Shown: piece after piece, positions 5,391-64,000 of the stretch
Layout of the letters: each line of letters begins with the position of its first letter
Numbering within the stretch: position 1 is the first letter of the stretch
Assembly (NCBI GenBank): GCA_041167585.1
Contig: JBEEHV010000005.1
Span: 13,883-77,882, forward strand
Direction of reading: 5' to 3'
Source: Verrucomicrobiota bacterium
GTDB lineage: Bacteria; Verrucomicrobiota; Verrucomicrobiia; Chthoniobacterales; UBA10450
Length of the DNA stretch: 64,000 nt
Notes under the pieces: model-generated
What the model was told of the DNA's origin: nothing
The model's database searches: none
Seen by the model: only the letters and a program-made list of their open reading frames with translations
Program-made: the position numbers and the translations under genes

Positions 5391-5459
5391 GCGTAAGTCC
5401 AGTTATGGGTCAAGTTCTTCCAACCCAGTTAGTCCAGCGTAAGTCCAGTTATAAGTCCA
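5390..5459. repeat. direct repeats AGCGTAAGTCCAGTTAT x2 plus extra TAAGTCCA / TTAGTCCAG copies in the Fic/kinase divergent promoter region
   Basis: 17-mer at 5390-5406 and 5436-5452. TAAGTCCA recurs at 5452-5459 and TTAGTCCAG at 5429-5437. Confidence 0.5.
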
Positions 5460-5513
5460 CCTCTCTTCGCGACTGAAGTGCCCTGAGCCGACCCAGACTT
5501 TACGAAGTAGCGC

Positions 5514-8500: not shown

Positions 8501-8564
8501 AGGCTTCGAGGCCGGGTCGACGGGCATCACGCTGGTTGACCGGGCCGCGCCGGCCAAGCAGTAG
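5514..8564 (+). CDS. Ser/Thr protein kinase with TM segment, YD/RHS-type repeat ectodomain and C-terminal PDZ-like domain
   Basis: Hanks kinase motifs: GRGGMGVVFRARQ, VALKML, HRDMKPANVLL, DFGIAKR, GTPTYMAPEQ. TM segment: SFAIAALVFLGIGL. YD-like repeats: LSYDSRGYPVRYEF, FDYDTAGNITAIRRL, FEYDGAGYLADSKV, RDPLGNVLEKRVVD. PDZ-like end: LKVGDQLLAAND...IEVVRDGKTVRIEG. The start is TTG 5514 or ATG 5532. Confidence 0.9.
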   Translation: MSAGGGMITLHFDVPPDLNTPDPSAPAPKVGRPIFGDYQVEGELGRGGMGVVFRARQKGLNRLVALKMLTGRYGPDELARFKAEAETAASLHHTNIVQIYEVGEDEGAPFFSMEYIETGSLADRLRGRVMPAREGAQLLISVARALHFAHQNGVVHRDMKPANVLLDPEGVPKVTDFGIAKRLSGESSLTQSGAVIGTPTYMAPEQAKGTSRDVGAAADVYSLGAILYEILAGRPPFLPEDSETALTVRVITEDPVSPAWHRPGTPRDLETICMKCLEKQPRDRYASAAAFAEDLRRYLEDESIMARPPTTVARAIKWTKRHPWRTSFAIAALVFLGIGLERLWRWEFYERPHVEWAETIDMVQGVAQPIVRCNAEEAARRGITFRLTRRGRAGAVTSLEILNPRGRPALVREVFGSDIFSNWVEGAMGAQKTNDRSREAVRINFIYTGGELAETTALDRNGHVTWRLLWNRVAEEEKNHHIVRARFVDLRGFDFSSTQGASHVQFLRDAAGLDIEVRFFNGSGKPAPNNEEVYGFRVGRDAAGRVTQLTNLDQNGQPMENRIGMISQGLSYDSRGYPVRYEFRDGEGKPAPWKNVAVTTFDYDTAGNITAIRRLNAENKPVNGEWGDWAVLEYKRNALGELIDRVYQKVAADGSLSQILRTQFEYDGAGYLADSKVIGPESVRTQWVRDPLGNVLEKRVVDLDGHPKTVSEGWSIIRYAYSDMASPPGWREEFSLFDTKGEKAWMLNGGFHRSITEFHSTGDVYRVITEDQNPAPGGFFRSITEPEFDTQQRMRKFVLRKEDKEGKLISGPGLTGILEKEFDDDGRLVSEWLIGSDTGTTGAPAWHTTTEWHRTGTEKRMAKQACDLQRKPLPYIATGTGARTEYYYDEIGQRDRIYETGFDEKVVGFNVRETKFAGGEFQSVTHKRSDGSMVDAVHVFITEVNPQQPKAAELKVGDQLLAANDHPVHSAYEWVFTKFPGGWIEVVRDGKTVRIEGFEAGSTGITLVDRAAPAKQ

Positions 8565-13613: not shown

Positions 13614-13689
13614 GGCCGTTTACCCTGTTACTCTTCCGCGTCCCTCCCCTGTTTTCTTGCCAGTTACAAGCCATCTCATAACTAGCGCT

Positions 13690-13789
13690 GTCATTCTGAG
13701 CGAAGCGAAGAATCTCTGATCATTTCCAGGTTTCGTGCGATATGGAGCGGAGAAATCGTCAGAGATCCTTCGCGTTCGCTCAGGATGAC
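13690..13789. repeat. REP-like long hairpin element, copy 2
   Basis: GTCATTCTGAGCGAAGCGAAGAATCTCTGA ... TCAGAGATCCTTCGCGTTCGCTCAGGATGAC. It has the same architecture and the same two arm asymmetries as copy 1, with compensating changes in the arm centre. Confidence 0.8.
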
Positions 13790-36162: not shown

Positions 36163-36234
36163 GCACGCCGGGAACGCTGGTCTACCTCCAAACTTTCCAA
36201 GAGATCCAGGGGCTTTAACAACTGTTAGTTTACA

Positions 36235-36351
36235 GTTAGCGAGCGCTACGACCTTGCCGCGTCACGCGCGTGTGGCTGCAAGTGGAAGGTCGTAGCTACT
36301 CTCAGCGGGGAAACAGAGCGGGGCGCGGTTAGCTGCATCGCTTGGTTAGAT
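36235..36351 (-). repeat. distal, atypical attC-like site of array A
   Basis: Minus-strand read: ATCTAAC-CAAGCGATGCAGC... central 11-bp stem (36245-36255 / 36286-36296) ...GCGCTCGCTAAC. The R'' arm is typical, but the R' end reads CTCGCTAAC in place of CTCGTTAGG. Confidence 0.45.
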
Positions 36352-36369
36352 GGTTGGTCGTGAGACAAA

Positions 36370-37005
36370 CTACTTCTCCGGGTTTTCTAGTGCGCTCGGC
36401 CCGCGCTTTGCGACCGCCACGCCAAGGCCGGCTAGCCCAACGCTGAAGATCCCGTTGGCGATGATGGCCCCCCACGCATGAAGCGGACTCGCCTGAAGAA
36501 GCGGGATTAAGACCAACCCGGCCGCGGCTGCGATTGCAGCCCACCGCGGAAGAATCCCGGTTCGCCAGACACTGATCGCCAGCAGCAGCCATCCCAGCGC
36601 AAACACTCCGGCGGCCGAAGCGAAACCGATACTGGTCAACGGGTGCTTATCGATCGCACTGAGTGCCGCGAGGTTAATCCCAGCGAGCGGGTAAAAAACA
36701 AAAACATCGGTGAATTCCACTGCAAAGAGGAGGCAGCTTCCGATAAAAGCAAAAACAAATGAGACGGCACCAAACCGGCCAGCGCGATCCCTCTGCATTA
36801 GGTGCACTCCGAGCGACCCGAAGATCAACATCAACGCGGCCAGGCCCGAGAGTGACTGCCGAAACAAAAATAGACCCGTTGTCTCAGGAGGAATGCCTAA
36901 GCTGCGACTGTGAAACATCAGCGGCGCGATGATAGCATTGACGGCTAGCGTCAAAAGGGCGCCACACAACAACCCGATGCCGCAAGGTCGTAGAAAGGTC
37001 TTCAT
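36370..37005 (-). CDS. cassette ORF: polytopic membrane protein, function unknown
   Basis: About 6 hydrophobic helices. ATG at 37005 (MKTFLRPCGIGLLCGALL). The ORF is open up to 37089. Confidence 0.65.
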   Translation of the reverse strand: MKTFLRPCGIGLLCGALLTLAVNAIIAPLMFHSRSLGIPPETTGLFLFRQSLSGLAALMLIFGSLGVHLMQRDRAGRFGAVSFVFAFIGSCLLFAVEFTDVFVFYPLAGINLAALSAIDKHPLTSIGFASAAGVFALGWLLLAISVWRTGILPRWAAIAAAAGLVLIPLLQASPLHAWGAIIANGIFSVGLAGLGVAVAKRGPSALENPEK

Positions 37006-37143
37006 GATCGCCAGTTTGGGTGTGAGCTGGCGCGGGCGGCCCGTTTCAGCATGCATCATCACCACCACTGAGATGCAGCCATCGGCCAATCCGGATTCAA
37101 GTAAATGAGCAGAAGCGCGCCTCGTGCAGACGGGGCTTTGAGC

Positions 37144-37210
37144 ATCTAACGAGACACAAGATGAGCGACTCCGAAAGCTTTCGGAGTTCGCTGCATCGCC
37201 TGGTTAGGCC
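37144..37210 (-). repeat. attC site (67 bp, short form)
   Basis: Minus-strand read: GCCTAAC-CAGGCGATGCAGCGAACTCCGAAAGC/GCTTTCGGAGTCGCTCATCTTGTGTCTC-GTTAGAT. It is a near-perfect hairpin with a single unpaired A in GCGA[A]CTCC. Confidence 0.75.
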
Positions 37211-37311
37211 TTGTTGTCGCCATCATCTGCTCGACCCCAGCGCCACGTTGCGGTTGCCTTCGTCCGAGTGGTTGGCCGCGCTCCTCCGCCAGCGGCATGC
37301 GGACCTTCATG

Positions 37312-37722
37312 TCACGGCGAGGCCGGCGGCAGGAACTTGTTCATCTTCTGCGCCACCTCCATCGACCCGCCGACCTTGAGCTTACGGGTCAGGAACGCCT
37401 TGGCGCCGTTGAGATCGCCGTTGGCGAGTTGGACGAAGTCGGCCCCCTTCATCTTGTACGTCACCGTCGGAGCCGCCGCGGCGCCCGGCTGGACGGCGAT
37501 GTTGCCGTCGGCGATCGTCACCGTCCAGGTGCCGGCGCCTTCCAGGTCGTACACGACGGTCGCGTGCACGCCTCTCGCCTGTGCCGGGATGAAGCGGGCC
37601 TTGATCGTATCGAAGTATTCCTGGCAGCTCTCGATGCGTCGCATCTTCGGACTAGCGGCACAGCAAAGGCTGGCCACGGCGACGGAGATGAGCAGTGCGA
37701 GTAGGGTTGTTGTTCTTGTCAT
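37312..37722 (-). CDS. cassette ORF: secreted SCP2 sterol/lipid-binding domain protein
   Basis: Signal peptide: MTRTTTLLALLISVAVASLCCAAS. SCP2 C-terminal pattern: ADFVQLANGDLNGAKAFLTRKLKVGGSMEVAQKMNKF. Confidence 0.8.
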   Translation of the reverse strand: MTRTTTLLALLISVAVASLCCAASPKMRRIESCQEYFDTIKARFIPAQARGVHATVVYDLEGAGTWTVTIADGNIAVQPGAAAAPTVTYKMKGADFVQLANGDLNGAKAFLTRKLKVGGSMEVAQKMNKFLPPASP

Positions 37723-37805
37723 GACGAGTATCCAGCGCCTGGGATTACGAGCCGGTCAAGTCGCGAAAACACGTAAATTCCTGATCGTGCGACATCTGGC
37801 TATCG

Positions 37806-37941
37806 ACCTAACGAGAATGGAACGGACTGGCAAGCCGTGACATAGACTTCAAGCCCGCAGGGTAAACGAGTCGCGCGAGTGCATCAACAAGATCAGCGAC
37901 TCAGAAAGCTTTGGGAGTTCGCTGCATCGCCTGGTTAGGTC
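37806..37941 (-). repeat. attC site (long form, about 136 bp, with an internal degenerate R'-like box at about 37862)
   Basis: Minus-strand read: ACCTAAC-CAGGCGATGCAGCGAACTCCCAAAGCTTTCTGAGTCGCTGATCTTGTTGATG...CTCGTTTACC...GTCCGTTCCATTCTC-GTTAGGT. Confidence 0.65.
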
Positions 37942-38566
37942 TTTGTGGCTCTACGCGATGTGTCAACCACATGAACAACTCGCGAGGCTCGTAGCTAAAT
38001 CGTATCGAAATAGATGGTGCTGTCCATTCACGCACAATGTGCGGCGAGCGACCAGTCTCGGTGTACGTCGGCTTGATTCTGTGATCCGCAAACCAGTCAT
38101 TCACTCGTTGCGTAAGTTCTGGGTGATCTTTGCTCGCGGTGTAAACGATCTCTTCAGATACGAGCCGATCGCGGCGCAGCCACTGTTCGTACTCTATGCT
38201 CCTCGGGCGTGCGAGGACTGGATACGAGACAAGAAGTGGTGTGAACGGCTGCCGAAAGCTTCGCATATCCGAAGATCGCCTGCTCCATGTCGCGCTGTCG
38301 CTGTGATATCGAAAGCGACAGGTGGTGCACGTGGGTAGAACTGTCGGAGAGCCCGGTTCGATTTCGCAGCCGCCGAGAATGAAATCAAGATTCTTAACGT
38401 GGCGCTCGATCTCTTTGGGATCCATCACGGACAAGCCGTAGTGAATCGGAACGTCTTTGAGAGTGGCATGCCCGTTCGGGCATCGTTTGAGGTCGGCGCT
38501 CTTGACCTCAGCCGAGGCAATAATCGGAAGGAGCAGGAGTAATGGGGCAAGTGCGCTGCGCATCAT
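37901..38566 (-). CDS. cassette ORF: secreted hypothetical protein (221 aa); last 12 codons lie inside the attC
   Basis: Signal peptide: MMRSALAPLLLLLPIIASA. The C-terminal ...RPNQAMQRTPKAF is the translation of CCTAACCAGGCGATGCAGCGAACTCCCAAAGCTTTCTGA. Confidence 0.7.
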   Translation of the reverse strand: MMRSALAPLLLLLPIIASAEVKSADLKRCPNGHATLKDVPIHYGLSVMDPKEIERHVKNLDFILGGCEIEPGSPTVLPTCTTCRFRYHSDSATWSRRSSDMRSFRQPFTPLLVSYPVLARPRSIEYEQWLRRDRLVSEEIVYTASKDHPELTQRVNDWFADHRIKPTYTETGRSPHIVREWTAPSISIRFSYEPRELFMWLTHRVEPQRPNQAMQRTPKAF

Positions 38567-38568
38567 AG

Positions 38569-38601
38569 ACCTAACGATAATAAGATGAGCATGGTTAGAC
38601 C
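38569..38601 (-). repeat. attC remnant (33 bp; both core boxes, centre deleted)
   Basis: Plus-strand read: ACCTAACGATAATAAGATGAGC|ATGGTTAGACC. It sits between the stop of 38604..38942 and the start of 37901..38566. Confidence 0.5.
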
Positions 38602-38603
38602 TC

Positions 38604-38942
38604 TCACCTAAAATTTTCCAAAAAGCCGTCGATGCCGCCGGAGATCAGAAACCAAACTTTGATGACTTTGCCGTTGCGGAGGCGAACTTCATATACGTCA
38701 TATCTCTTCTTGCCGGGCGGAACTACTAGCGCTTGGCTGAGAACCTTCGACTTCGGATATTTCTGCGCGATCCAAGCGTAGGCGGATTGCTCGACCCCAA
38801 CGACTAGAACTGCCTTTTCAGGGGAGCTGCCGTCACCACCATAGTAGCCCGGTTTAGTGTTGCTATAGTCGGGTCCGCTGTCAGCCCTTGCGCAGCCGAT
38901 CGCGGAGCAACAAATCAACGCAAGAATGAGTAGTGTGCGCAT
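38604..38942 (-). CDS. cassette ORF: small lipoprotein (112 aa)
   Basis: ATG at 38942 gives MRTLLILALICCSAIGCA, a lipobox-type signal. The upstream TTG-extended part of the ORF is the translated attC. Confidence 0.7.
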   Translation of the reverse strand: MRTLLILALICCSAIGCARADSGPDYSNTKPGYYGGDGSSPEKAVLVVGVEQSAYAWIAQKYPKSKVLSQALVVPPGKKRYDVYEVRLRNGKVIKVWFLISGGIDGFLENFR

Positions 38943-38944
38943 AG

Positions 38945-39105
38945 GTCTAACGAGACCAAGACGAGCGACGGCTGGCGGGGGCGTGCTTTCGCTTCGGTTT
39001 TCTACTTTCAATTTTCACATTTCGCCTTCCACTGATGCCAGTCCTTTGCTGTCCTTTGGCCCGCTCAGGACCTTGAGCAATCGAAACGGCATCGCTTGGT
39101 CGGTC
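38945..39105 (-). repeat. attC-like site, long and degenerate at the R'' end
   Basis: The R' end GTCTAACGAGACCAAGACGAGCGACGGC (plus-strand read) is typical. The other end reads GCATCGCTTGGTCGGTC instead of GCATCGCCTGGTTAGGTC. Confidence 0.45.
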
Positions 39106-39120: not shown

Positions 39121-39576
39121 TTATCTGTCGCGAAACCCCATGATGCTAGGGCCAGCCTTCTCCATCCCGTTGTCGTTGCCTAGCGTGGACCCTCGGCCAG
39201 TGAAATTGATCGGTATGTTGTAAAAAGGTCCTGGTCGGCCTGGTCTTGCGCGCCATTCTCGTAAGGCCTCGACGCTGGCATGATCAAGTATCTTGCTGCC
39301 CGAAGTGTCTGCCAGCTCGACTCGAGCGACCGTCCCGTCCGCGTTTAGAGTCACACGGCAGACGGCCCGCCCTTCGATGCGCCTCGACCCGGTGCTCGTG
39401 CGCACCCAAGCGTCTATAGGGTAGCGGGGCGGCGGCATGTAGGTAAACACATCGCTAAGGCGCTTCAAGGTATCAGCTGGAGCGGTTGCCACGATAATGA
39501 GCAGCATGAGAGAGATGACGGCCCGCTGCAAATGGCCCCATTTGGAATGTATCGCGTGTTTGGTGGCGTCTTGCAT
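39121..39576 (-). CDS. cassette ORF: TonB C-terminal-domain-like protein with N-terminal anchor
   Basis: ATG 39576 (MQDATKHAIH..AVISLMLLIIVA). C-terminal YPIDAWVRT..GRAVCRVTLNADGTVARVELADTSGSKILDHASVEALREWRARP resembles TonB_C. Confidence 0.65.
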   Translation of the reverse strand: MQDATKHAIHSKWGHLQRAVISLMLLIIVATAPADTLKRLSDVFTYMPPPRYPIDAWVRTSTGSRRIEGRAVCRVTLNADGTVARVELADTSGSKILDHASVEALREWRARPGRPGPFYNIPINFTGRGSTLGNDNGMEKAGPSIMGFRDR

Positions 39577-39578
39577 AA

Positions 39579-39628
39579 GCCTAACTACAATTAGACGAAA
39601 CGAAGTTTCGTCTACTTCGGCGTTGTTC
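39579..39628 (-). repeat. proximal short attC-like site / R' box of the first cassette of array A
   Basis: Plus-strand read: GCCTAAC-TACAAT-TAGACGAAAC-GAA-GTTTCGTCTA-CTTCGGC-GTTGTTC. The R' box and a 10-bp stem are clear; the partner box GTTGTTC is poor. Confidence 0.4.
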
Positions 39629-39747
39629 GACGGAAGTGCTCTGGTAAAGCGAAAGGGGAACCATTGCCCATTCGTAACCGCAGCTCTCCAGGGTCGGCAA
39701 GCCCAAACTCCTCGATCGGGTGCGCGCACGATTAGCAGCCGCGACCC

Positions 39748-43038: not shown

Positions 43039-44151
43039 ATGGCGAAGAAACCCGAAAAAGAACCCTCAAAACGTCGTAACTTTCCGTTCCACACACTGGA
43101 AGACGCGTTACCCGTCGCGCAAAAGGTCGCCGACGAAAGGGGTGGTCAACCATTCAAACGCCTTTTGCTTTCCGATGCTCTCGGAATCAAGCCAAGCAGC
43201 AGCAACTATCGCGATTTGCTAAGTTCCTCTTTCAAATACGGTCTGACCGACGGTACTGAAAAAGCCTCAGAGATTCTTCTTACTGAGCTTGGCGCACGAG
43301 CGACGCAAACAACATCGCCGACCGACCGGATGAAGGCTTTACGTGAGGCCGCAATAAAGCCCGACGTCTTCAAACGGTTCTATACCGCATATCGAGAGCG
43401 GAAGTTGCCCTCGACGGAAATGTTCCCGAAGATCCTCAACGCCGATTTTGGAGTGCCGTTGGAGCATGCAGGCGAGTGCGCCCGTTTCATAGAGCAGAAC
43501 GGTAGATTCGTTCAGATCGTCCGCGATATCGGCGGGTCTCCCCATGTCCTGTTAGATTTGGAAGCCGTTACAGACACCACTACTCAATCAAACGGGAAAG
43601 AAGACGAGCCGGAGGTGATGCCGGATACGCCTCCCCTTGATGCTGATGTTCCGCACCCCCCAGCCCCAGGCGCGTCACCATCCACACCGCCCCCACCGGA
43701 AAATGACAGTGCTCCGAAGCCGATTTTCATTGGACACGGGAAAGACAAGGTGCCCCTCCAAAAGCTTCAGGCGATTCTCACCACCTTCCGCATTCCGCAC
43801 CGAGTGACTGTAGATGAAGCGAACCTCGGCCGGCCTATCTCGCAGAAGGTGAAAGACACGATGATGCAATGCGGGTCGGCCATACTCATTTTCACCCGCG
43901 ATGAGAGATTTTTTGACGAGAATCAGCAAGAAATCTGGCGTCCCTCAGAGAATGTTGTCCACGAGCTTGGAGCGGCTTCATTCGCTTACGGAGATCGGAT
44001 AATGATTTTCAAAGAGAAGGGGCTGCATTTTCCCACGAACTTCCAGAACATCGGTTACATCGAATTCGAAGGACAAAACCTCGAGTCAAAGACCGCAGAC
44101 CTGTTGAAAGAGCTTATTGGTTTCGGCCTTGTAAAAATCACACCGGCTTAA
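43039..44151 (+). CDS. two-domain protein: uncharacterised helical (wHTH-like) N-domain, Pro-rich linker, C-terminal TIR-like nucleotide-binding domain (CAP12/Pycsar-effector, COG4271-type)
   Basis: The C-terminal 140 aa are PIFIGHGKDKVPLQKLQAILTTF...GSAILIFTRDE...RPSENVVHELGAASFAYGDRIMIFKEKGLHFPTNFQNIGYIEFE. This follows the FIxHGxD / hydrophobic-T.DD / R.NVxxELG / G..Y pattern of bacterial TIR-like effector domains. GGAG lies 9 nt upstream of the ATG. Confidence 0.8.
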   Translation: MAKKPEKEPSKRRNFPFHTLEDALPVAQKVADERGGQPFKRLLLSDALGIKPSSSNYRDLLSSSFKYGLTDGTEKASEILLTELGARATQTTSPTDRMKALREAAIKPDVFKRFYTAYRERKLPSTEMFPKILNADFGVPLEHAGECARFIEQNGRFVQIVRDIGGSPHVLLDLEAVTDTTTQSNGKEDEPEVMPDTPPLDADVPHPPAPGASPSTPPPPENDSAPKPIFIGHGKDKVPLQKLQAILTTFRIPHRVTVDEANLGRPISQKVKDTMMQCGSAILIFTRDERFFDENQQEIWRPSENVVHELGAASFAYGDRIMIFKEKGLHFPTNFQNIGYIEFEGQNLESKTADLLKELIGFGLVKITPA

Positions 44152-44177
44152 CCCGGTCTCCTCAATAGCCCCGCCCA

Positions 44178-45014
44178 GTGATGAGACGCCGCGAGTATCA
44201 TGATGGTGATGCGGTCGTGAACTTCATGGATTGCAGGTTCGAGAGTGACCTGCGAAAAGCAAAACTTCCAACCTTCCCTGACCAGCGGAAGCTAAAGACA
44301 TCGCAAGACGCGGCTCTTTGGATGTTGTGGGTGATGAGAGATTACTTCGGACATCACTCTCCAATGTACGCATCAGAATTGGCTCATTTGCTGGAACTAC
44401 GGGGGATAGCGGTCCGGGAAGATCAGCTTGAGCAGCTGCTAATGCGTGCAGGTAAGAAGATAATGAGAAAACGGTATGATGAAACGTCGACCGAGCTTGC
44501 ATATATGATCGCCGAAAAAGGGGTCGCATTTCTACAAGCGAAGTACTCGGCGACGGGAGTGCGAGCAATTATTATCGATGGCACACAGCCGTGGCGCGAC
44601 CGGCATGTTACCCTACCAACAATCGCTGAGCAGCTTTCCGGTCGGATCTGTGTCGTCGATAAGTATTACGGCCGCGGAACACTTGCGGTGTTATACCACT
44701 TCAGGCATGGGTCGCCGCTTCAGTTCCTCACCGCCCGAACGAGCGAGACGGCAGGCGCATTCGCGCGAGAACTAAGGGATTTCAAAAGAGAGAGTCCTAC
44801 GTTGGAGGTGCGCATTTTTCCGGACTCCGGCGAGTTACACGACCGCTATATCATCTCCGAGCACGCTTTGATTATCGTTGGCCATGGAATCAAAGACATC
44901 GGAACGAAAGAATCATTCCTGATTTTTCTCGAAGGCGACAGCACTTCGGAGTTGCGACAAACACTTCTCGAGAAGTTCAACCATCGATGGTCACAGTCGT
45001 ACGTTCCAACATAA
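44178..45014 (+). CDS. hypothetical protein with C-terminal PLD-like (MIT_C-type HDR...GxGxKD) module
   Basis: 278 aa (GTG 44178 or ATG 44181), 26 nt after the TIR-like gene. The C-terminus is LEVRIFPDSGELHDRYIISEHALIIVGHGIKDIGTKESFLIFL. The N-terminal half is wHTH-like (ASELAHLLELRGIAVREDQLEQLL). The domain call is tentative. Confidence 0.75.
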   Translation: MMRRREYHDGDAVVNFMDCRFESDLRKAKLPTFPDQRKLKTSQDAALWMLWVMRDYFGHHSPMYASELAHLLELRGIAVREDQLEQLLMRAGKKIMRKRYDETSTELAYMIAEKGVAFLQAKYSATGVRAIIIDGTQPWRDRHVTLPTIAEQLSGRICVVDKYYGRGTLAVLYHFRHGSPLQFLTARTSETAGAFARELRDFKRESPTLEVRIFPDSGELHDRYIISEHALIIVGHGIKDIGTKESFLIFLEGDSTSELRQTLLEKFNHRWSQSYVPT

Positions 45015-45188: not shown

Positions 45189-45968
45189 ATGAAAACGTCC
45201 CCCCGCCTCGCTGGGATCATCCCCTTCACCTGCATTTTATTCCTCATCGCGCTCGCCCTGACAACGCCTTGCGTAACGGCAGGTGTCCCACAACCGAAGC
45301 TCTACGCGGCGCTCCTGGCCAAGGCCCGCGCGGGAACGCTCCGCGTCGTGCCCGGTGAAGCCCCGGCACCGCGCCCGTTGGCGATGGCTGCGGGAAAGCG
45401 CGCCGGTTCCGGCTCTGAGATTTTTCCGCCCACTTCTTATCGCGCGGCGGCGAAGACTTCGTTCGAATCGGGGCCGGTCGAAACGTTCGCCACACTCGAC
45501 GCGTTGTTCACGCCGCTCCCTGCGGATAGCAAGATGTCGAAGGATTTCCCGAAGCTGGTGGTGAAGAAAGGGAATGTAAGTCCCCGGGTCCCGTTGGAAA
45601 AACGGAACGTGAAGATACCGGCTTTCATCTATTGGGTCGCGCCAGAAAGCGATCACGATTTCCACGTGATCCTGGGGAGCACGTCGGAATTGACCTCGAC
45701 CACCAGATTCATGAACAGCGAGATTTCGGGCCTGCCTTCGGCCAACCCAACCAAGAGTCCCTTCCCGCAACGCCGCAGCGATATCCGGGCGATGCTCAAG
45801 AAGCACGAGAACGTTGACGGTCTTTTTGTGAAGCCGGTTCCCGTTAGCGTGACCGGCACGCTTCTGTGGGACGGCGAGCATCGCGCGCCCCACAACGTCG
45901 GCCCCGAGGGACTAAGGCCGACCAAGGCCTGGGAGATTCACCCGATCAAGCTTTTGGCGGAACGTTAG
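45189..45968 (+). CDS. secreted hypothetical protein (259 aa)
   Basis: Signal or anchor: MKTSPRLAGIIPFTCILFLIALALTTPCVTA. Its TAG stop lies inside the GTTAGCGAGC end of the distal attC remnant of array B. Confidence 0.7.
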   Translation: MKTSPRLAGIIPFTCILFLIALALTTPCVTAGVPQPKLYAALLAKARAGTLRVVPGEAPAPRPLAMAAGKRAGSGSEIFPPTSYRAAAKTSFESGPVETFATLDALFTPLPADSKMSKDFPKLVVKKGNVSPRVPLEKRNVKIPAFIYWVAPESDHDFHVILGSTSELTSTTRFMNSEISGLPSANPTKSPFPQRRSDIRAMLKKHENVDGLFVKPVPVSVTGTLLWDGEHRAPHNVGPEGLRPTKAWEIHPIKLLAER

Positions 45969-45998
45969 CGAGCCGTTCGCTGCATCGCCTGGTTAGAC
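45964..45998 (-). repeat. distal truncated attC (R''-L'' arm only), ends in GTTAGCGAGC like the distal site of array A
   Basis: Minus-strand read: GTCTAAC-CAGGCGATGCAGCGAACGGCTCGCTAAC. Confidence 0.5.
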
Positions 45999-46463
45999 GT
46001 TCCGCTGAGTCCACCATGAAACGATCTCGTGATCTGCGGCCATTTCTCTGCCGTGCTCCGCCCACCAATCCACGAGAAGCCATCGCACAGCATCGCCCAT
46101 CGAACACTGCGGGTGCGGAAACAAGGTCGTGCTAGCGGTCGTGAGCGTGTGAATGAACCAAGCAGCAGTCTCGGCTCGCTTGCGTAAGACTGAGAGGGCT
46201 TCCAGGCTGAAACCGTCCAAATCCACCTCGCCAGAAAGCGCGATGAGCGCGATGGCCGCCTCGACCTCCGGCAGGTAAGGCTTCTCTGCCTCCTCGATGC
46301 GCGAGATCAGGTCGTCGGAATCATCAACGTCTGATTCGTCGAACGTGTAGACACTAGGCGCTTCTCGCTTCTTCAGGTTGAAGATAAGAATGCCGTCGAA
46401 GTAGTGTTCGAGATCATACCACTGCCGAATCTGTTCGGACATGTTGTAGAAGGACTCGGACAT
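45993..46463 (-). CDS. cassette ORF: acidic hypothetical protein (156 aa)
   Basis: ATG 46463 (MSESFYNMSEQIRQWYDLEHYF...). It has a D/E-rich stretch, FDESDVDDSDDLISRIEEAE. The TAA stop is the TAA of the GTCTAAC box. Confidence 0.65.
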   Translation of the reverse strand: MSESFYNMSEQIRQWYDLEHYFDGILIFNLKKREAPSVYTFDESDVDDSDDLISRIEEAEKPYLPEVEAAIALIALSGEVDLDGFSLEALSVLRKRAETAAWFIHTLTTASTTLFPHPQCSMGDAVRWLLVDWWAEHGREMAADHEIVSWWTQRNV

Positions 46464-46478
46464 GCGCGTGGCTGTTAC

Positions 46479-46601
46479 GTCTAACGAGAACAAGATGGGT
46501 GACGGCGGACGAGACCGCCTGTCGCTCGGAGTGGATGTGAGGGAGTCATCTCAATAGCGGGCGCTCAACGGTCCGCCGTTCGCTCCATCGCCTGGTTAGG
46601 T
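46479..46601 (-). repeat. attC site (123 bp)
   Basis: Minus-strand read: ACCTAAC-CAGGCGATGGAGCGAACGGCGGACCG...CGTCCGCCGTCACCCATCTTGTTCTC-GTTAGAC. Confidence 0.8.
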
Positions 46602-47114
46602 CTGGTTGATCGGAGTGCCATTTACGTCGTAGATGCGCAGACGTGTCGGGATGCGCGCAGCTACTTCCGGCTGGCTGCCCACCTCAACAACCCACCGCTC
46701 GCCGCCAGCGACGATCTGCGCACAAAAGATGTCGACCTGGAGCTGGAGTTTCGACCCGAGTTGGTTGCAGTGAACTGTCGAAGTAGGTGGTGCCACTGTG
46801 AACTGAAAGCGCTCGAGTGCCTCGCGGGCGCTCTGCGAAACAATTTCCTCGCGACCCTCGTGCAAGAACGCACATCGCAATGCGTAGCAATCACGCCCAC
46901 TCAGGAAGACGTGGCGCTCACGATCTGGACCGATCTCGCGGATGTACTGAGGGCCGACGAAGCGATCAAACCACGCGACGTAACGATTCTGCGAGCCTGC
47001 CGCGGAATCTTCGAGCCAGCCGCAAATGTCCGGAACCACTAGAGCCGTGCTGAGAGCCGCGTACCAGTTCTGCTGCGCGACGGCTGCCGTTACTGATTGG
47101 AGTAGGTGTTGCAT
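46596..47114 (-). CDS. cassette ORF: hypothetical protein with Rx4H (HEPN-like) motif (172 aa)
   Basis: NWYAALSTALVVPDICGWLE ... LSGRDCYALRCAFLHEG, where RCAFLH is an R-x4-H motif. Predicted helical. The TAA stop is inside the ACCTAAC box. Confidence 0.7.
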   Translation of the reverse strand: MQHLLQSVTAAVAQQNWYAALSTALVVPDICGWLEDSAAGSQNRYVAWFDRFVGPQYIREIGPDRERHVFLSGRDCYALRCAFLHEGREEIVSQSAREALERFQFTVAPPTSTVHCNQLGSKLQLQVDIFCAQIVAGGERWVVEVGSQPEVAARIPTRLRIYDVNGTPINQT

Positions 47115-47121
47115 GTGAAAG

Positions 47122-47245
47122 CCCTAACGAGAACAAGATGAGCGACGGCGCACGAGAGCGCGTGTCGCTCGGAGTGAAAGTGTGGAAGCCATCTCAAAAG
47201 TTGAGCGCACAGCGGTCCGCCGTTCGCTCCATCGCATGGTTAGGC
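47122..47245 (-). repeat. attC site (124 bp)
   Basis: Minus-strand read: GCCTAAC-CATGCGATGGAGCGAACGGCGGACCG...GTGCGCCGTCGCTCATCTTGTTCTC-GTTAGGG. The arms GAGCGA[A]CGGCG and CGCCGTCGCTC pair with one bulged A. Confidence 0.8.
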
Positions 47246-47728
47246 CTTGTTGGGTGGAAGAGCAAAGCGTTGAGGCGCACTGCCGTCTTTGAAGTGGAGC
47301 AAGACAAAATGGTCAGACTCATGCCACTCCCACGTAAACTCGCCCTGGTAGTAAAGCGGGCTTGTGGTGAGGCGAATAGCTTTCTGGTCCGCGGCGCGAA
47401 AGAGAAAAACATGGAAGCCGTACTGATCCTTGCGCCACTCGGACTGGAAGTCGATATCCGCGTAGGCGGCGAGATCCTTGCTCGGCGACAGTGAAGAGGA
47501 CACGTAATACGAAACGCGTTGGTCGCGAAAATATAAGTAGTCGCCATGATAGACACTCTCAAATCCGCCGGTCATATACTCTGCGAGTCCGACGCGGCGA
47601 AAGCCGCCACCGAGGTCTTTGGTGTCCTCGACGACCGGGTGACCTGCGGTTGGTATGCGCGAGCTGTCCGTGCACTGCGCTAATAACAGAGCTGCAGAGA
47701 TCAGTGACATCGGGAGCGACGGCAGCAT
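47240..47728 (-). CDS. cassette ORF: probable lipoprotein (162 aa)
   Basis: ATG 47728 gives MLPSLPMSLISAALLLAQC. The TAA stop is inside the GCCTAAC box. The ORF is open up to 47776 through the R' half-site. Confidence 0.65.
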   Translation of the reverse strand: MLPSLPMSLISAALLLAQCTDSSRIPTAGHPVVEDTKDLGGGFRRVGLAEYMTGGFESVYHGDYLYFRDQRVSYYVSSSLSPSKDLAAYADIDFQSEWRKDQYGFHVFLFRAADQKAIRLTTSPLYYQGEFTWEWHESDHFVLLHFKDGSAPQRFALPPNKA

Positions 47729-47730
47729 GG

Positions 47731-47755
47731 GCCTAACGAGAAATGGACGTCCTAG
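47731..47755 (-). repeat. proximal R' half-site of array B (first recombination point; no recognisable R'' partner or attI/intI upstream)
   Basis: Minus-strand read: GGACGTCCATTTCTC-GTTAGGC, then CC-ATG. It closely resembles the R' end of the 37806 site (GTCCGTTCCATTCTC-GTTAGGT). Confidence 0.5.
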
Positions 47756-47904
47756 TGACGGGAAAAAAGGCGTCATTCGGCCGCCTATTTCTGGGCTTTG
47801 GTGGGGAGAATGCCTGAAAAGGCTTCACGATTCAGTGATAACCTCCGCGTCAGACCCGGACAAGCTGAAACTCGGTCCCGGCGTGATCCGCGGAGCGCTA
47901 GAAC

Positions 47905-50062: not shown

Positions 50063-50370
50063 ACGCGCAGTAATGTCGTGTTCGCCCTGTTAATCAAGTC
50101 GCTCCGGGCGAGAAGTTCGCGCGCGTGCAGTTGCTGACAATCGGTGGCGTCCTGAGTTGGACTCAACGCGCCGAGTATCCAGACTACGAACCGCATCTAA
50201 ACTTCGCGAAAGCCAAAGCCGAAAGCGGACCGGAGCAGCAGATCTTGATTTTGCCTGTTGCGGTGCCGGCATGATAGACGCCGTACCGCTCGGCCACGCG
50301 GCCTCCCCAAAAATGTGAGGACGCGAACTTCGATTTGCAGGATATTATTGGGGGGCCGAGTTAGCGAGCG

Positions 50371-51021
50371 CTACGAGGTTCCGCTCGCGCTCTGGAGCTG
50401 TTTCACTTCCTGCTCGAAACATTCCGGACATGCGCCATGACTGAACCGGGTCCCGGTCTCTTTTTGAATGTAATTCTCGACCTGGTCCCAGCAGTCATGC
50501 TCATCCCGCACTTTCCGGCAATAGATGCAGATCGGGATTAACTCTTTCAATTTCCGGATCTCCGCGGTGTATTTCAGGATTCTTTCCGCCACCGCCAGCC
50601 GCATCCGAATCGCTTCGCGATCCAGCGGCTTGGTCAGGAAGTCATCAATTCCTGCCGCGCTCGCGAGTTTATAGTTAGCGGCGCTGGTGCGGTTCGCGGT
50701 GAGAAGGATGAAGTAGGTATAAGGCGTCTGCTCGCGGGCCCGCACTTTTTCGCAGAGGCCCAGGCCATCTAGTTTCGGCATCATCCAGTCACTCACGATC
50801 AAGCGCGCCGGTTCCTGGTCGAATTTATCCCAGGCCTCCCCGCCATCGCGAGCCAGCACCGGTTCGTAGCCAAACTTTGAAAGCGTAGCTTCCAGGATTC
50901 TCGCGCTGACCGGATCATCCTCGACAATGAGGATTCGGCTTCGCTCGGGCGCCAAGGCGGCCTGAAGCCGGCTCGGCAGCGCCAGGAAGCGTCCGCCGAA
51001 CTTATCGTCAGGGCCGGACAT
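50371..51021 (-). CDS. response regulator with Cys-rich C-terminal output motif (IPICxYCxKVRD...W...FSHGxCPEC)
   Basis: REC: ILIVEDDPVSARIL, LIVSDWMMPKLDG, TKP. Tail: LIPICIYCRKVRDEHDCWDQVENYIQKETGTRFSHGACPECF. Confidence 0.85.
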   Translation of the reverse strand: MSGPDDKFGGRFLALPSRLQAALAPERSRILIVEDDPVSARILEATLSKFGYEPVLARDGGEAWDKFDQEPARLIVSDWMMPKLDGLGLCEKVRAREQTPYTYFILLTANRTSAANYKLASAAGIDDFLTKPLDREAIRMRLAVAERILKYTAEIRKLKELIPICIYCRKVRDEHDCWDQVENYIQKETGTRFSHGACPECFEQEVKQLQSASGTS

Positions 51022-60973: not shown

Positions 60974-61055
60974 GCCAGGGTGGCGAAATTGGCAGACGCG
61001 CCAGACTTAGGATCTGGTGGAGCAATCCTTAGGGGTTCGAGTCCCCTCCCTGGTA
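60974..61055 (+). tRNA. tRNA-Leu (anticodon UAG), class II with long variable arm
   Basis: Hand fold: acceptor GCCAGGG/CCCTGGT (G1-U72 wobble); D arm GCG-AAATTGGCAGA-CGC; anticodon stem CCAGA/TCTGG with loop CTTAGGA; variable arm GGAGCAATCC; T arm AGGGG-TTCGAGT-CCCCT; discriminator A. CCA is not encoded. Confidence 0.85.
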
Positions 61056-61130
61056 CTAACTGTTCTTCCGGACGCGCATAGCTCCGACCTCTTCTGCGCG
61101 GCGCGGCCCGATGGAGGACGCGCCGAGCGC

Positions 61131-62516
61131 TTATCTGGAACTCGCGGAAGGAAGCTTTAGACTCTGAAGGCAAGCTTCAAACATCCCTCGCTCTTCCGGC
61201 CCCATTTCTCGCGGCGCGACGCAGTCGACCACTGTTATGGCGCCGGAGTTCGGACCTTTGCCGGAAAATGCGAAAACCACATGCAGTTGAAAGTCACCTT
61301 CGACCTGCCTCCGTAGCTCAAAAACAGTGGCCGTCCCAGAAGCACCCTTTAAGGTCGCGTACGGACAAGAGCTGCGCTCGCGAAACGTTTTGCTCACTGC
61401 TATCGGCTTGTAGATATCCACATACTCCGGCAGAGAACCCGCGAGACGCCCGTAAACCACGATGGTCGCCATCCCATCCGGCCGGTTTAACAGGATACGA
61501 TCCTTGGCCGAAGCGGTGTCTCGAACCCAGCCTGCGGGAAAACGAATCGAGGCGTCGGTGCCCGGCATCGTCGTCGGCGAACCTAGTTTCGCCGTTGCCA
61601 CCGCGGAGCGCGTGTCATGGTCGAGCACACAGGGCCAGATCGGATTGGCGGCGGCCGGCGGTGCGTCCTCCGTTTTTTTCGAAGGCTCGTTAGCGGATTC
61701 AGTTTGCTTGATCAACCGGCTGCCCTCCGGGGTAACCAACGCCTCCCCCTCGAACTTGAGCCTGAAGGTCTCACCGTTGCTATCTTTGAATCTGAGCGTC
61801 GTACCGTCGCGGGTGTAGGTACCGGTAAGCGACTTCCCGCGGTCTTGGGCGACAAATGTCCCGTCTGCTTTCAACAGCATGGAGAGTTTGTCACTGGCGT
61901 ATGTCCCGGCGATGTTGGAATTCTCGCCGCTGGTTGATTTCGAATCTCCCTTCGACTCTGCCGGCTTGGTCAGCCAGGTGTCTTCGGCCCCACTCGCGGC
62001 GGTCGGCTTGATGGAATTGAAGATCGCCTGGATGTCGCTCCTGGCTGTCTTCATCGACTCCGCCGGCATACGAACGACCAGCATCACTACCTCCTTCGGG
62101 GTCAGGCGAAGGGTGTATGCCACGCCGACGATCTGTCCTTCGGTTCCCAACTGGAAACGCGATAACTGCGCTTTGCTTCCGCTGCTGTGCTTAACGATCC
62201 CACGCTCAATCACCTTGTAGCCGGCCTCGCTATTCATGCCGATAATCTCGTCCGCGTTGACCTCCTCAACCGGTTTGTCCGTCTCAAAAATACCAGCCCA
62301 CAACTCTGCTTTGCCGGGTCCTTTGCCTTCCAATTCTGTTTTGGATTCTATTGGGGCTGTCCAACCGTCGGGCAGTTCCAACGAGTACTTGCCGGCGAGA
62401 GTTACCTCTGCGGCGAAACAGCTTTCGACAGGAGACAGAACGACAAGAGCCAGCAGTGTCGTCGCAACAACGCGAAGCGAAGAACGAACAGCAGAAGAGA
62501 GGAGAGAAAAAATCAT
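61131..62516 (-). CDS. secreted protein, member 1 of a tandem paralog family (461 aa)
   Basis: Signal or anchor: LRVVATTLLALVVLSPVESCFA. Shared N-module: EVTLAGKYSLELPDGWT. Shared module: IAGTYASDKLSMLLKADGTFVAQDRGKSLTGTYTRDGTTLRFKDSNGETFRLKFEGEALVTPEGSRL. Confidence 0.8.
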   Translation of the reverse strand: MIFSLLSSAVRSSLRVVATTLLALVVLSPVESCFAAEVTLAGKYSLELPDGWTAPIESKTELEGKGPGKAELWAGIFETDKPVEEVNADEIIGMNSEAGYKVIERGIVKHSSGSKAQLSRFQLGTEGQIVGVAYTLRLTPKEVVMLVVRMPAESMKTARSDIQAIFNSIKPTAASGAEDTWLTKPAESKGDSKSTSGENSNIAGTYASDKLSMLLKADGTFVAQDRGKSLTGTYTRDGTTLRFKDSNGETFRLKFEGEALVTPEGSRLIKQTESANEPSKKTEDAPPAAANPIWPCVLDHDTRSAVATAKLGSPTTMPGTDASIRFPAGWVRDTASAKDRILLNRPDGMATIVVYGRLAGSLPEYVDIYKPIAVSKTFRERSSCPYATLKGASGTATVFELRRQVEGDFQLHVVFAFSGKGPNSGAITVVDCVAPREMGPEERGMFEACLQSLKLPSASSR

Positions 62517-62524
62517 AGAGCGGC

Positions 62525-63367
62525 TTACGGTTTCTTCACCCAGCGAGATCCATCTTTCCCAATCAAGACATCTTTATCGAGCTTGGCATCGTCGGTATCT
62601 GTATCAGTGAATTTCAATGTGATCGTCGCACCGTTGCGAACGTAGGTGCCAGTCCCCGATTCACCGCGCATCTGAAAGGAGAAGGTTCCGTCGGCCTTCA
62701 ACTCCATGTAGTCCCCGCCGCCGCCGGCGAGGACGTATTTCCCGGCTATTTTGGAATCATCGCTACTGGGGGCCTTCGAATCTCCCTTCGACTTTTCTGC
62801 CGGCTTGGTCAGCCATGAGTCGTCGTCACTCGCCGCGCTGGCTGATTTAACGGAGTTGACGATGGCTTCGATGTCGCTTCTATACGACTTCGAAGGTCCG
62901 CTGCCGGGCGGCAGCATAAAGACGAAGATGGCGATGTGCTTGTCCGCAAGTTGAAGGTAGTAGTTAGCGGTCGTCTCCGGCACGTTGTTGCGGTCCGTTT
63001 GATAACGCAGCAATTGCGCCTTGAGGCCGGCCTTGGTAGTAAGCGATCCCTTATCAAGCACCTTAAAGCCGGGCTTCTTTTCGAAAACGCTGAGGTTCTG
63101 TGCCAGCATTTCTTCGAGCGAGTAGGTACTCTCGCCGGACTTCACAAGCAAACGGACTCCACCAGGTCCTTCTGCGAGGAATGATGATTTATCCTCCCGC
63201 GATTTTTGCGTCCAGCCGGGAGGGAGTTCGAAAGAGCAATTACCGCCGAAAGTCACCTCGGTAGCCGAGCAAATTTCCGCCGCGGATACGAGCAGCAGTA
63301 AGACTACGGCACCCACAATAGTTCGCCCGAAAGGACGGGACACTCCGAAGAAAAAAGGAAAAGACAT
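62525..63367 (-). CDS. secreted protein, member 2 of the paralog family (280 aa)
   Basis: TIVGAVVLLLLVSAAEICSA, then EVTFGGNCSFELPPGWT... and IAGKYVLAGGGGDYMELKADGTFSFQMRGESGTGTYVRNGATITLKF. Confidence 0.8.
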   Translation of the reverse strand: MSFPFFFGVSRPFGRTIVGAVVLLLLVSAAEICSATEVTFGGNCSFELPPGWTQKSREDKSSFLAEGPGGVRLLVKSGESTYSLEEMLAQNLSVFEKKPGFKVLDKGSLTTKAGLKAQLLRYQTDRNNVPETTANYYLQLADKHIAIFVFMLPPGSGPSKSYRSDIEAIVNSVKSASAASDDDSWLTKPAEKSKGDSKAPSSDDSKIAGKYVLAGGGGDYMELKADGTFSFQMRGESGTGTYVRNGATITLKFTDTDTDDAKLDKDVLIGKDGSRWVKKP

Positions 63368-63415: not shown

Positions 63416-63486
63416 GCGAATTGGCAGAACTCCAGACTTAGGACCTGGTGGAGCAATCCTTAGGGGTTCGAGTCCCCTCCATGGTA
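63416..63486 (+). pseudogene. decayed partial copy of tRNA-Leu(UAG), lacking the 5' acceptor strand and with a broken D stem
   Basis: GCGAATTGGCAGAACTCCAGACTTAGGACCTGGTGGAGCAATCCTTAGGGGTTCGAGTCCCCTCCATGGTA is near-identical to nt 60983-61055. The upstream TTTTCGGCC cannot pair with CCATGGT. The anticodon stem has an A-C mismatch. Confidence 0.6.
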
Positions 63487-63543: not shown

Positions 63544-64000
63544 TCAGCGCTTCTTGCGCAAACGTTCGCCATCCGGAGTAACTAAAGCATCCTTTTCCCG
63601 CTTGAGGCTAAAGGTTTCACCCTGGCTGTCTTTGAATCTAAGTGTGCCGCTGTCACTGGTGTATGTTCCGGTAAAGGACTTCCCGCCCTCTTTTGCCTCA
63701 AACCTCCCGTCAGCTCCTAATGTCATCGACCGCTTGTCGCTGACGTATGTCCCGGCCAGGTTAATCGAGTCCAGGATCTGATAGGCGCGCTCCTCGTCGG
63801 TTTTCGGATCTAGTTTCGGCTTTTGTGCCGGCGTATCCCTCGGCGCGGCGTTGGGACGAGTGGCGGCCGTCCCGCTGATCTTTAATGACGAAAAGATCGC
63901 GTCTACCGCGTGGTGGAATTTCTCGTCCAGCTTCTTCGGTGTGAGAAACCGCAGCGTGACGAGTTGATTTTTCGCAACTTCAACGATTACCCCCACCTCT
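63544..64000 (-). CDS. secreted protein, member 3 of the paralog family (N-terminus beyond the window)
   Basis: LAGTYVSDKRSMTLGADGRFEAKEGGKSFTGTYTSDSGTLRFKDSQGETFSLKREKDALVTPDGERL. The frame is open to the window end. Confidence 0.75.
   Translation of the reverse strand, partial: EVGVIVEVAKNQLVTLRFLTPKKLDEKFHHAVDAIFSSLKISGTAATRPNAAPRDTPAQKPKLDPKTDEERAYQILDSINLAGTYVSDKRSMTLGADGRFEAKEGGKSFTGTYTSDSGTLRFKDSQGETFSLKREKDALVTPDGERLRKKR

Follow-up and report, generated by a model that had tools for sequence, protein, structure and literature searches.

How did three short genes that are unrelated to one another come to lie in a row on one strand, with long palindromic elements as the only sequence between them? 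This question is raised by positions 45952-47830 of the window, i.e. the whole 64-kb stretch of DNA analysed here, from the chromosome of an uncultured soil bacterium of the Verrucomicrobiota. Judged from its sequence, the locus, referred to as array B, is very probably (probability about 0.93) a three-cassette integron array with attC sites of a Chthoniobacterales type. Because no integron integrase gene (intI) lies nearby, it is labelled a CALIN (an attC cluster without an integron integrase), a class defined by at least two attC sites without a nearby intI, grouped by a 4-kb clustering rule (Cury et al. 2016, PMC4889954). In array B there are two complete attC and a truncated one, and no IntI-like sequence was found in the window or in the 28 kb beyond its right end.

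Organization of array B

The two full palindromic elements, read on the minus strand, occupy 47245-47122 (124 nt) and 46601-46479 (123 nt). In an earlier account made from the letters of the window alone, here called the sequence-only reading, they were described as near-identical palindromes of 123 bp. The positions given there were exact, but at 84 % identity (104/124) the two copies can only be called similar. The arms agree best, with 31/34 matches over the first 34 nt and 34/40 over the last 40, and the centre is more variable, as had been noted at the time. The three minus-strand open reading frames (ORFs) described in the same account were indeed open (47728-47240, 47114-46596 and 46463-45993). 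They are related neither to one another nor to the ORFs of array A, a second group of attC sites in the window (best BLASTP E above 1).

Cassette ORFs B1 (47240-47728, 162 aa), B2 (46596-47114, 172 aa) and B3 (45993-46463, 156 aa) all lie on the minus strand, and the TAA stop of each sits within an R'' box of the form RYC-TAA-C (GCC-TAA-C, ACC-TAA-C and GTC-TAA-C, respectively). That the ORF always precedes R'' was thus rightly observed, since every site in the window follows a minus-strand ORF. The attC of B1 (47122-47245, minus strand) has the boxes R'' GCCTAAC and R' GTTAGGG and a predicted crossover between G47128 and T47127, and that of B2 (46479-46601, minus strand) has R'' ACCTAAC and R' GTTAGAC. 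The boxes fit RYYYAAC and GTTRRRY, the ends proposed in the sequence-only reading, and the R pairing was recovered across 139 sites of the family (see below). In the last attC (45952-45998, minus strand), which is truncated, the part R''-spacer-L'' is intact (TCTAACCAGGCGATGCAGCGAAC, the motif with 1 mismatch) and is followed by GGCTCGCTAAC and then by the end of a converging plus-strand ORF (45189-45968). Six copies of the 23-nt R''-L'' motif are present in the window, all of them on the minus strand, compared to 0.00 expected from shuffled sequences. Three of the copies are in array B, the third being the truncated site (45997-45975), and three are in array A.

Array B carries half-sites at either end, beyond its two full attC. 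The upstream boundary (47731-47830, minus strand) has the core GTTAGGC at 47737-47731, within an L'/R'-like half-site 'TTCTCGTTAGGC' (47742-47731). The TTCTC before this core is the same as in the attC and attI of the Chthoniobacterales family. A weakly attI-like stretch (AAAGC..GGCCGAAT..CCTTTT) precedes the core, and it shows weak, colinear similarity to the attI of the source contig and to that of a relative, L020 (Smith-Waterman scores against shuffles, p = 0.006-0.02). The covariance model described below gave no match at 47731-47830. Taken together the sequence is suggestive of a degenerate attI or an attC remnant at this boundary, and not of a full attC.

The N-terminus of B1 resembles a lipoprotein signal when judged by eye. 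Pfam and NCBIfam gave no match for the cassette ORFs B1-B3 or for A1 and A2 of array A, and within array B there were no terminator-like hairpins and no promoters above chance.

Folding and conservation of the attC sites

The bottom strand of the array B sites is the plus strand of the window. When folded as single-stranded DNA, it gave a paired R box of 6 bp (CCTAAC/GTTAGG) and an unpaired spacer with arms of unequal length (8 nt versus 5 nt). The L stem is long and carries two bulges of one base each on its 3' arm, and the terminal part is variable. The features that the sequence-only reading had proposed to look for in the fold, R and L boxes with extrahelical bases, were therefore seen. 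A single conserved unpaired A had been predicted there; this A is unpaired (GCGA[A]C), but a second base, the G of GAT[G]S, is unpaired as well. These extrahelical bases correspond to T and C, respectively, on the bottom strand.

For comparison across the family, 139 bottom strands with less than 85 % mutual identity, among the matches listed from the genome search described below, were aligned. RNAalifold recovered the R box and a 15-bp L stem. Paired cells made up 93.6 % on this structure (95 % in the R helix), compared to 78.9 % in shuffles, and compensatory changes were present in 13 of the 20 pairs (e.g. CG:70 / GC:48 / AU:9). The covariation score was 0.378, compared to 0.127 in shuffles and 0.03-0.07 when the partners were slid by 1-3 columns. 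All 139 sites have the bulged T and all have the second bulge, which is a C in 134. Both bulges are on the bottom-strand 3' arm, with six paired columns from one to the next. One spacer arm is A-rich and has 8-9 nt, and the second invariably has 5 nt. As read on the bottom strand, RYCTAAC is the R' box of 122/139 sites and GTTAGRY the R'' box of 134/139. Counted from the outer end of R'' (7 + 5 + 3), the bulges are at positions 16 and 23.

Known attC sites have RYYYAAC and GTTRRRY boxes and a total length of 57-141 bp, with two to three extrahelical bases near L'', of which position 16 is 'usually a G' and a T at position 23/24 is conserved; a 6-bp stem is required between the extrahelical bases and the spacer has 5-6 nt per arm (Nivina et al. 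2016, PMC5027507). The boxes, bulges, 6-bp stem, unpaired spacer, variable end and length described there were all found in the present sites, the sole deviations being a C in place of the G at position 16 and the longer spacer arm. Folding as DNA is about equally good for the two strands, but the sequence features are asymmetric between them.

Covariance model searches

A covariance model, R1, was built from the alignment, that is from this attC family alone, and the whole window was scanned with filters off. Significant matches formed only two clusters, all on the plus strand and at 3' ends of ORFs. The two full sites of array B scored 118.8 bits (47122-47245, E 3.5e-32) and 104.5 bits (46479-46601, E 4.5e-28) on the plus strand, compared to 12.8 and 7.4 bits on the opposite strand, and the truncated site at 45952-45998 scored 14.2 bits (E 0.037). 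Opposite strands of the same sites gave 7-13 bits in general, i.e. about 10 times less.

As an outside control, R1 was run against 13 kb of pFBAOT6, a plasmid with a class 1 integron. The sole significant match was the attC of aadA2 (5003-5062, bottom strand, 37.5 bits, E 1.6e-9). This site aligns end to end with the model, and its T and G bulges fall at the bulge positions of the model. A covariance search had been suggested in the sequence-only reading; made here with the family's own model, it gave matches in two clusters on one strand and detected an attC of a class 1 integron.

The attC family in other genomes

One genome per species was scanned for CTAACCANGCGATGNAGCGAAC. The family was present in at least 119 genome blocks of 8 kb, almost all from Chthoniobacterales. 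Among the matches listed, which is the scope of all counts in this section, 111 of these blocks belong to metagenome-assembled genomes (MAGs) of Verrucomicrobiota (Chthoniobacterales, Udaeobacter, 'Spartobacteria').

When three mismatches were allowed, at least 370 sites were found in 120 sequences, with a median spacing of 568 bp. Orientation was mixed in 0 of 79 multi-site loci. An open frame of 60 codons or more lies directly upstream of 305 of the 370 sites, and in 108 cases the stop of the ORF is provided by the site, as the TAA of cTAAc. Complete sites could be delimited in 337 cases, nearly all of 58-139 nt, with a mode of 123-124 nt (200 of the 337) and a short class of 58-66 nt.

The other eight blocks listed come from MAGs labelled Acidobacteria, Terriglobales, Dormibacterota, Limnocylindria, Nitrospira or 'bacterium', mostly as short contigs (L006, L032, L051, L057, L062, L067, L108 and L115). 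Either these are mis-binned Verrucomicrobia contigs or cassettes have been transferred between phyla.

Integron integrases in the window and in relatives

IntI1, in a sequence 100 % identical to the annotated intI1, was used as the tblastn probe. It gave no match in the 64-kb window and no integrase in the 28 kb past its right end. A six-frame search of the window with an IntI hidden Markov model (HMM), made from the integrases of relatives, returned only noise (best E 0.18). Very divergent recombinases were looked for with Pfam on about 20 ORFs of the window. The statement of the sequence-only reading that the 64 kb hold no tyrosine recombinase is thus borne out for integron-type integrases by both searches, and for other recombinases within the ORFs scanned with Pfam.

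In relatives the same probe detected full-length homologues (52-55 % identity) in six of the attC-bearing blocks and fragments in seven more, among the matches listed. Three of the full-length homologues scored 445-493 bits with TIGR02249 'integron integrase' (cutoff 265). A full-length IntI adjoins the array in at least seven loci (L091, L020, L100, L042, L073, L114 and L127). The intI gene is divergent from the cassettes, as is canonical, in L091, L020, L073, L114, L105 and L127, and lies upstream on the same strand as the cassettes in L100 (3189-4235) and L042 (3162-4304). One sequence, CAWBIP010000002, carries two integron loci (L073 and L105).

Homologues of the cassette genes

The B2 family is widespread and comprises 420 homologous proteins of about 170 aa with unknown function. 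A homologue 83 % identical to B2 is cassette 5 of a complete integron (L127), in which intI scores 471 bits on TIGR02249 and attC matches of 91-120 bits lie on either side of the B2 homologue. Another homologue, 93 % identical, adjoins a glyoxalase cassette in L128, a different array. In both arrays the B2 homologues are flanked by attC of the present family.

Similar relations were seen for genes bordering the window arrays. The ORF directly upstream of the first attC of array A (39121-39729, minus strand) has a TonB C-terminal domain (Pfam TonB_C, E 2.2e-10), and a homologue 73 % identical lies between attC matches inside the array of L003; this ORF, too, is probably a cassette. Upstream of array B is a 322-aa ORF that shares 88 % identity with one located just downstream of two attC in L036.

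Arrays A and C and the wider locus

Array A (36234-39065, minus strand) consists of five co-oriented attC and four ORFs. It is 6.9 kb apart from array B, and as this exceeds the 4 kb of the clustering rule the two are counted as separate clusters. Its sites, all on the minus strand, are a degenerate attC at 39065-38945 (27.7 bits with R1), a 32-nt mini-site at 38600-38569 (GTCTAACCATGCTCATCTTATTATCGTTAGGT, 24.3 bits), an attC at 37940-37883 (35.8 bits), a well-formed 66-nt attC at 37209-37144 (72.5 bits) and an attC at 36351-36234 of which the 3' part has been replaced (36.2 bits). The minus-strand ORFs are located at 38942-38604, 38566-37901, 37722-37312 (SCP2 domain in Pfam) and 37005-36370 (membrane-protein-like when judged by eye). 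The mini-site looks like R'' and the start of L'' joined to the end of L' and R', as if its centre had been deleted, and still separates two ORFs.

Beyond the window a third array, C, was read from the 28 kb past the right end (L120, L124 and L126). It has 28 attC matches over about 18 kb (from L126 3401 to L124 11834), equivalent to about 71.3-89.0 kb in window coordinates (to about 89.6 kb when the stretch upstream of its first cassette is included) or 7-25 kb past the right end. The array is oriented like A and B, with small co-directional ORFs between the sites. The 158 nt immediately upstream of its first cassette (region L126 2840-3010) are 79 % identical to the intact platform of L020. 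In this upstream stretch of array C are the crossover core GTTAGGCG, an attI that includes an inverted repeat of 15 nt (TAGGCCGAATTATTC ... GAATAATTCGGCCTA) and, on the opposite strand, the initial ~50 nt of intI; beyond these the similarity ends. The intI reading frame is broken by a frameshift and a stop. The short intI stub and the lack of an integrase match in tblastn indicate that array C is, as far as its sequence tells, an integron that has lost its integrase. Neither array C nor the window, which is without intI, thus holds a complete integron.

One cassette of array C (L124 10414-11609, window-equivalent about 71.6-72.8 kb) contains two 171-aa ORFs on the strand opposite to that of the array. 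Such reverse-strand ORFs are an arrangement typical of self-expressed cassettes, e.g. toxin-antitoxin pairs.

Array B lies 24 kb and array A 32 kb downstream of array C, the platform of which begins about 41 kb upstream of B and roughly 25 kb past the right end of the window. Between B and C are a gene for a large PAS histidine kinase, response regulator genes and a tRNA-Leu gene, and the kinase-regulator-regulator block is syntenic in two relatives. Because these syntenic signalling genes intervene, arrays A and B are, on this comparison, separate clusters and not the contiguous tail of array C. The alternative left by the sequence-only reading, a CALIN or the distal part of a larger integron, is therefore answered for the window arrays by the former. 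The latter is partly right in that they lie downstream of a 28-site array with an intI stub.

Discussion

The combination of co-oriented cassettes, attC folds and strand-specific model matches argues for array B being an integron array, and the established attC mechanism indicates how it would have worked. Each cassette consists of a promoterless ORF and the attC after it. The bottom strand, when single-stranded, would fold as an imperfect hairpin, to which an integron integrase would bind at the R and L boxes, the strand being recognised by the two bulges (C and T) and the asymmetric spacer. Cleavage would occur between A and C of 5'-AAC-3' in RYCTAAC. Recombination between two attC would excise a cassette circle, and recombination between attC and attI would re-insert it. 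Expression of the cassettes, if any, would occur via read-through or internal promoters. As the intI of the nearest platform has been deleted, the window cassettes are probably an immobile stored reservoir, unless an IntI encoded elsewhere in the genome, or brought in by an incoming element, acts in trans.

Several observations weigh against this interpretation. The final attC is truncated in both window arrays, and what lies upstream of B1 falls short of a full attC. Array B thus has no more than two sites that are likely to be competent for recombination. The first extrahelical base is a C where canonical sites usually have a G, and one spacer arm has 8-9 nt compared to the usual 5-6 nt. The integrase search covers about 92 kb of the 674-kb source contig. 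Finally, an exact 18-nt repeat around both arrays, discussed below, hints at some other mobility or rearrangement event beyond the integron model.

Palindromes that are intergenic, abundant and homogeneous over many genomes, in a window without an integrase nearby, could also be dispersed repeats of the REP or MITE type (repetitive extragenic palindromes, miniature inverted-repeat transposable elements), which would resemble attC and have spread by transposition, or serve as structural or terminator elements, without any link to integrons. The sequence-only reading had named such dispersal, with no preference for ORF boundaries or a single orientation, as what would speak against attC. The family behaved otherwise, its co-orientation being strict (no mixed locus) and its sites lying mostly after open frames. 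In the window the matches were limited to 3' ends of ORFs in two clusters, in relatives the arrays adjoin intI and attI, and neither terminal inverted repeats nor target-site duplications were seen. With a strand-specific model that also detects a class 1 attC, we consider a dispersed repeat highly improbable. Stable hairpins directly after stop codons likewise bring to mind transcription terminators or structured regulatory RNAs of the small genes. However, there are no T-runs, terminator-like sites numbered 0 compared to 2.1 expected, and Rfam gave no match at E <= 0.1 in 35-51 kb. Termination would not explain the conserved spacer, bulges and RYYYAAC/GTTRRRY boxes, nor why both strands fold alike as DNA while the sequence features are strand-asymmetric, and this explanation has almost no probability in our view.

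Two further alternatives concern the history of the array. It could belong, as a distal part that is still active, to a functional sedentary chromosomal integron, the cassettes of which an intact intI of the same genome, in cis or in trans, would regularly shuffle. Three co-oriented clusters (A, B and C) fall in a stretch of about 53 kb. An attI is present in array C, the seven proximal sites of which show the high homogeneity (103-114 bits) of recently active arrays, and other Chthoniobacterales genomes carry several integron loci (CAWBIP010000002). The disrupted intI remnant beside array C, the absence of a tblastn match in the 28 kb, the syntenic core signalling genes between B and C and the truncated terminal attC of A and B make this unlikely.

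It is also possible that arrays A and B arrived or were rearranged together, as a 14.1-kb variable island at the 3' end of the response regulator gene 50371-51021, with the 18-nt repeats as its junctions. This would be compatible with the integron-cassette identity of the arrays. The exact repeat, TCGTAGCGCTCGCTAACT on the minus strand, forms the 3' end of the attC that closes array A (36234-36251) and recurs in the last codons and stop of the response regulator gene (50359-50376), with 0.05 occurrences expected by chance, and it extends as a gapped direct repeat to 34 nt. The interval between the two copies holds both arrays. With its '..AGG TCG TAG', the distal copy resembles the natural 3' terminus of the orthologue in L122, and the sequence downstream of the response regulator is wholly different in two relatives (L122 and L123). 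The 10-mer at its core, GCTCGCTAAC, is present again behind the truncated final site of array B (45964-45973) and was absent from 775 kb of other loci. On the other hand, no recombinase was recognised among those ORFs of the proposed island that were scanned with Pfam (those of 278, 259, 322 and 357 aa gave no match), and the six-frame IntI-HMM search was negative. GC content shows no compositional shift, and no empty site was found, the L122 and L123 loci having neither attC nor the repeat nor an empty site. In addition, the repeat partly overlaps sequence that could equally be derived from attC. The 18-nt repeat could be an island junction or a secondary recombination site, and we regard the joint arrival as a tentative explanation with a minor share of the probability.

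The interpretation as a CALIN agrees well with what is known of this class. Loss of intI and rearrangement are among the origins proposed for CALINs, and integrons occur in Verrucomicrobia (Cury et al. 2016, PMC4889954). Array B shares with described CALINs at least two co-oriented attC without a nearby intI, few cassettes of unknown function and the presence of other integron-derived elements in the genome, and both origins would fit. There is no essential difference, except that part of the history is visible here, in the 28-site array with its attI and intI stub.

The sites also recall the VCR-type arrays of Vibrio cholerae (Vibrio cholerae repeats, about 120-130 nt), which are likewise chromosomal, with long attC, high similarity between the sites of a genome and mostly small hypothetical ORFs. 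The host phylum is a different one, however, the family is order-wide and not confined to one species group, and the sites are found in three fragmented clusters with intI deleted. VCRs also have three extrahelical bases (G16, T20 and T24; PMC5027507) compared to two here (C16 and T23). Class 1 attC sites (aadA2/aadA7) have the same box layout, the same two bulge positions and the same 6-bp stem between them, and their size is matched by the 58-66-nt members of the family, e.g. 37209-37144. They differ in that here the first bulge is C and not G, one spacer arm has 8-9 nt, lengths of 123-124 nt dominate and no resistance genes are present. In 'inverted integrase' integrons, e.g. that of Treponema denticola, intI is co-oriented with the cassettes. 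Two of the relatives (L100 and L042) are alike in this respect, but most are canonical and the window has no intI.

No paper specifically on Chthoniobacterales integrons was found, Verrucomicrobia being mentioned only generically in Cury et al. 2016 (PMC4889954), and for this reason the attC family, attI and integrases of this order are probably undescribed members of a known system. They might even form a distinct integron lineage, with an order-wide attC (also present in MAGs of other phyla), a C as the first extrahelical base, a long A-rich spacer arm, both intI orientations, and cassette blocks that spread via GCTCGCTAAC as a secondary site and seed multiple CALINs. Both window arrays have the proposed secondary site at their truncated ends, and the response regulator gene has it at its 3' end. 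We consider this wider proposal doubtful and give it little credence.

The present results do not change the understanding of how integrons work, the mechanism being textbook knowledge; only the host group and the order-wide attC family are new. Chthoniobacterales, including Candidatus Udaeobacter, belong to the most abundant bacteria of soils. Array B is a well-supported example of how widespread and diversified the integron system is in this order, Candidatus Udaeobacter included, where it represents a large pool of mobile cassettes of unknown function. The attC consensus (YCTAACCAKGCGATGSAGCGAAC ... TCGCTSATCTTGTKCTCGTTAGRY) and the attI could be used for primers or models to recover cassettes from soil metagenomes, and order-specific attC and attI sequences could help to assign orphan cassettes to a host lineage.

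Other features of the window

Between arrays A and B lies a gene for a CAP12/Pycsar-effector TIR protein (43039-45014; PF10137, E 1.3e-14), followed by the 278-aa ORF without a known domain. Together they possibly form a pair for anti-phage defence.

The 3' 55 nt of the tRNA-Leu gene (60974-61056) are repeated 2.4 kb away at 63432-63486 with 96 % identity. In this interval and its flank are three mutually similar ORFs (61131-62516, 62525-63367 and 63544-63996). The duplication is att-like in appearance, without an integrase. The ORFs 61131-62516 and 62525-63367 were considered as integrase candidates and rejected, as these two paralogues have no Pfam domain and matched no recombinase family.

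Two further repeats were observed. A tandem pair of a 45-46-nt unit (78 % identical) lies at 5374-5464, upstream of a 1016-aa ORF (5514-8564). A 62-nt repeat with 89 % identity (1147-1208 and 13665-13726) contains GTCATTCTGAGCGNAGCGAAGAATCTCTGATCATTTC; it is intergenic at both positions and is unrelated to attC.

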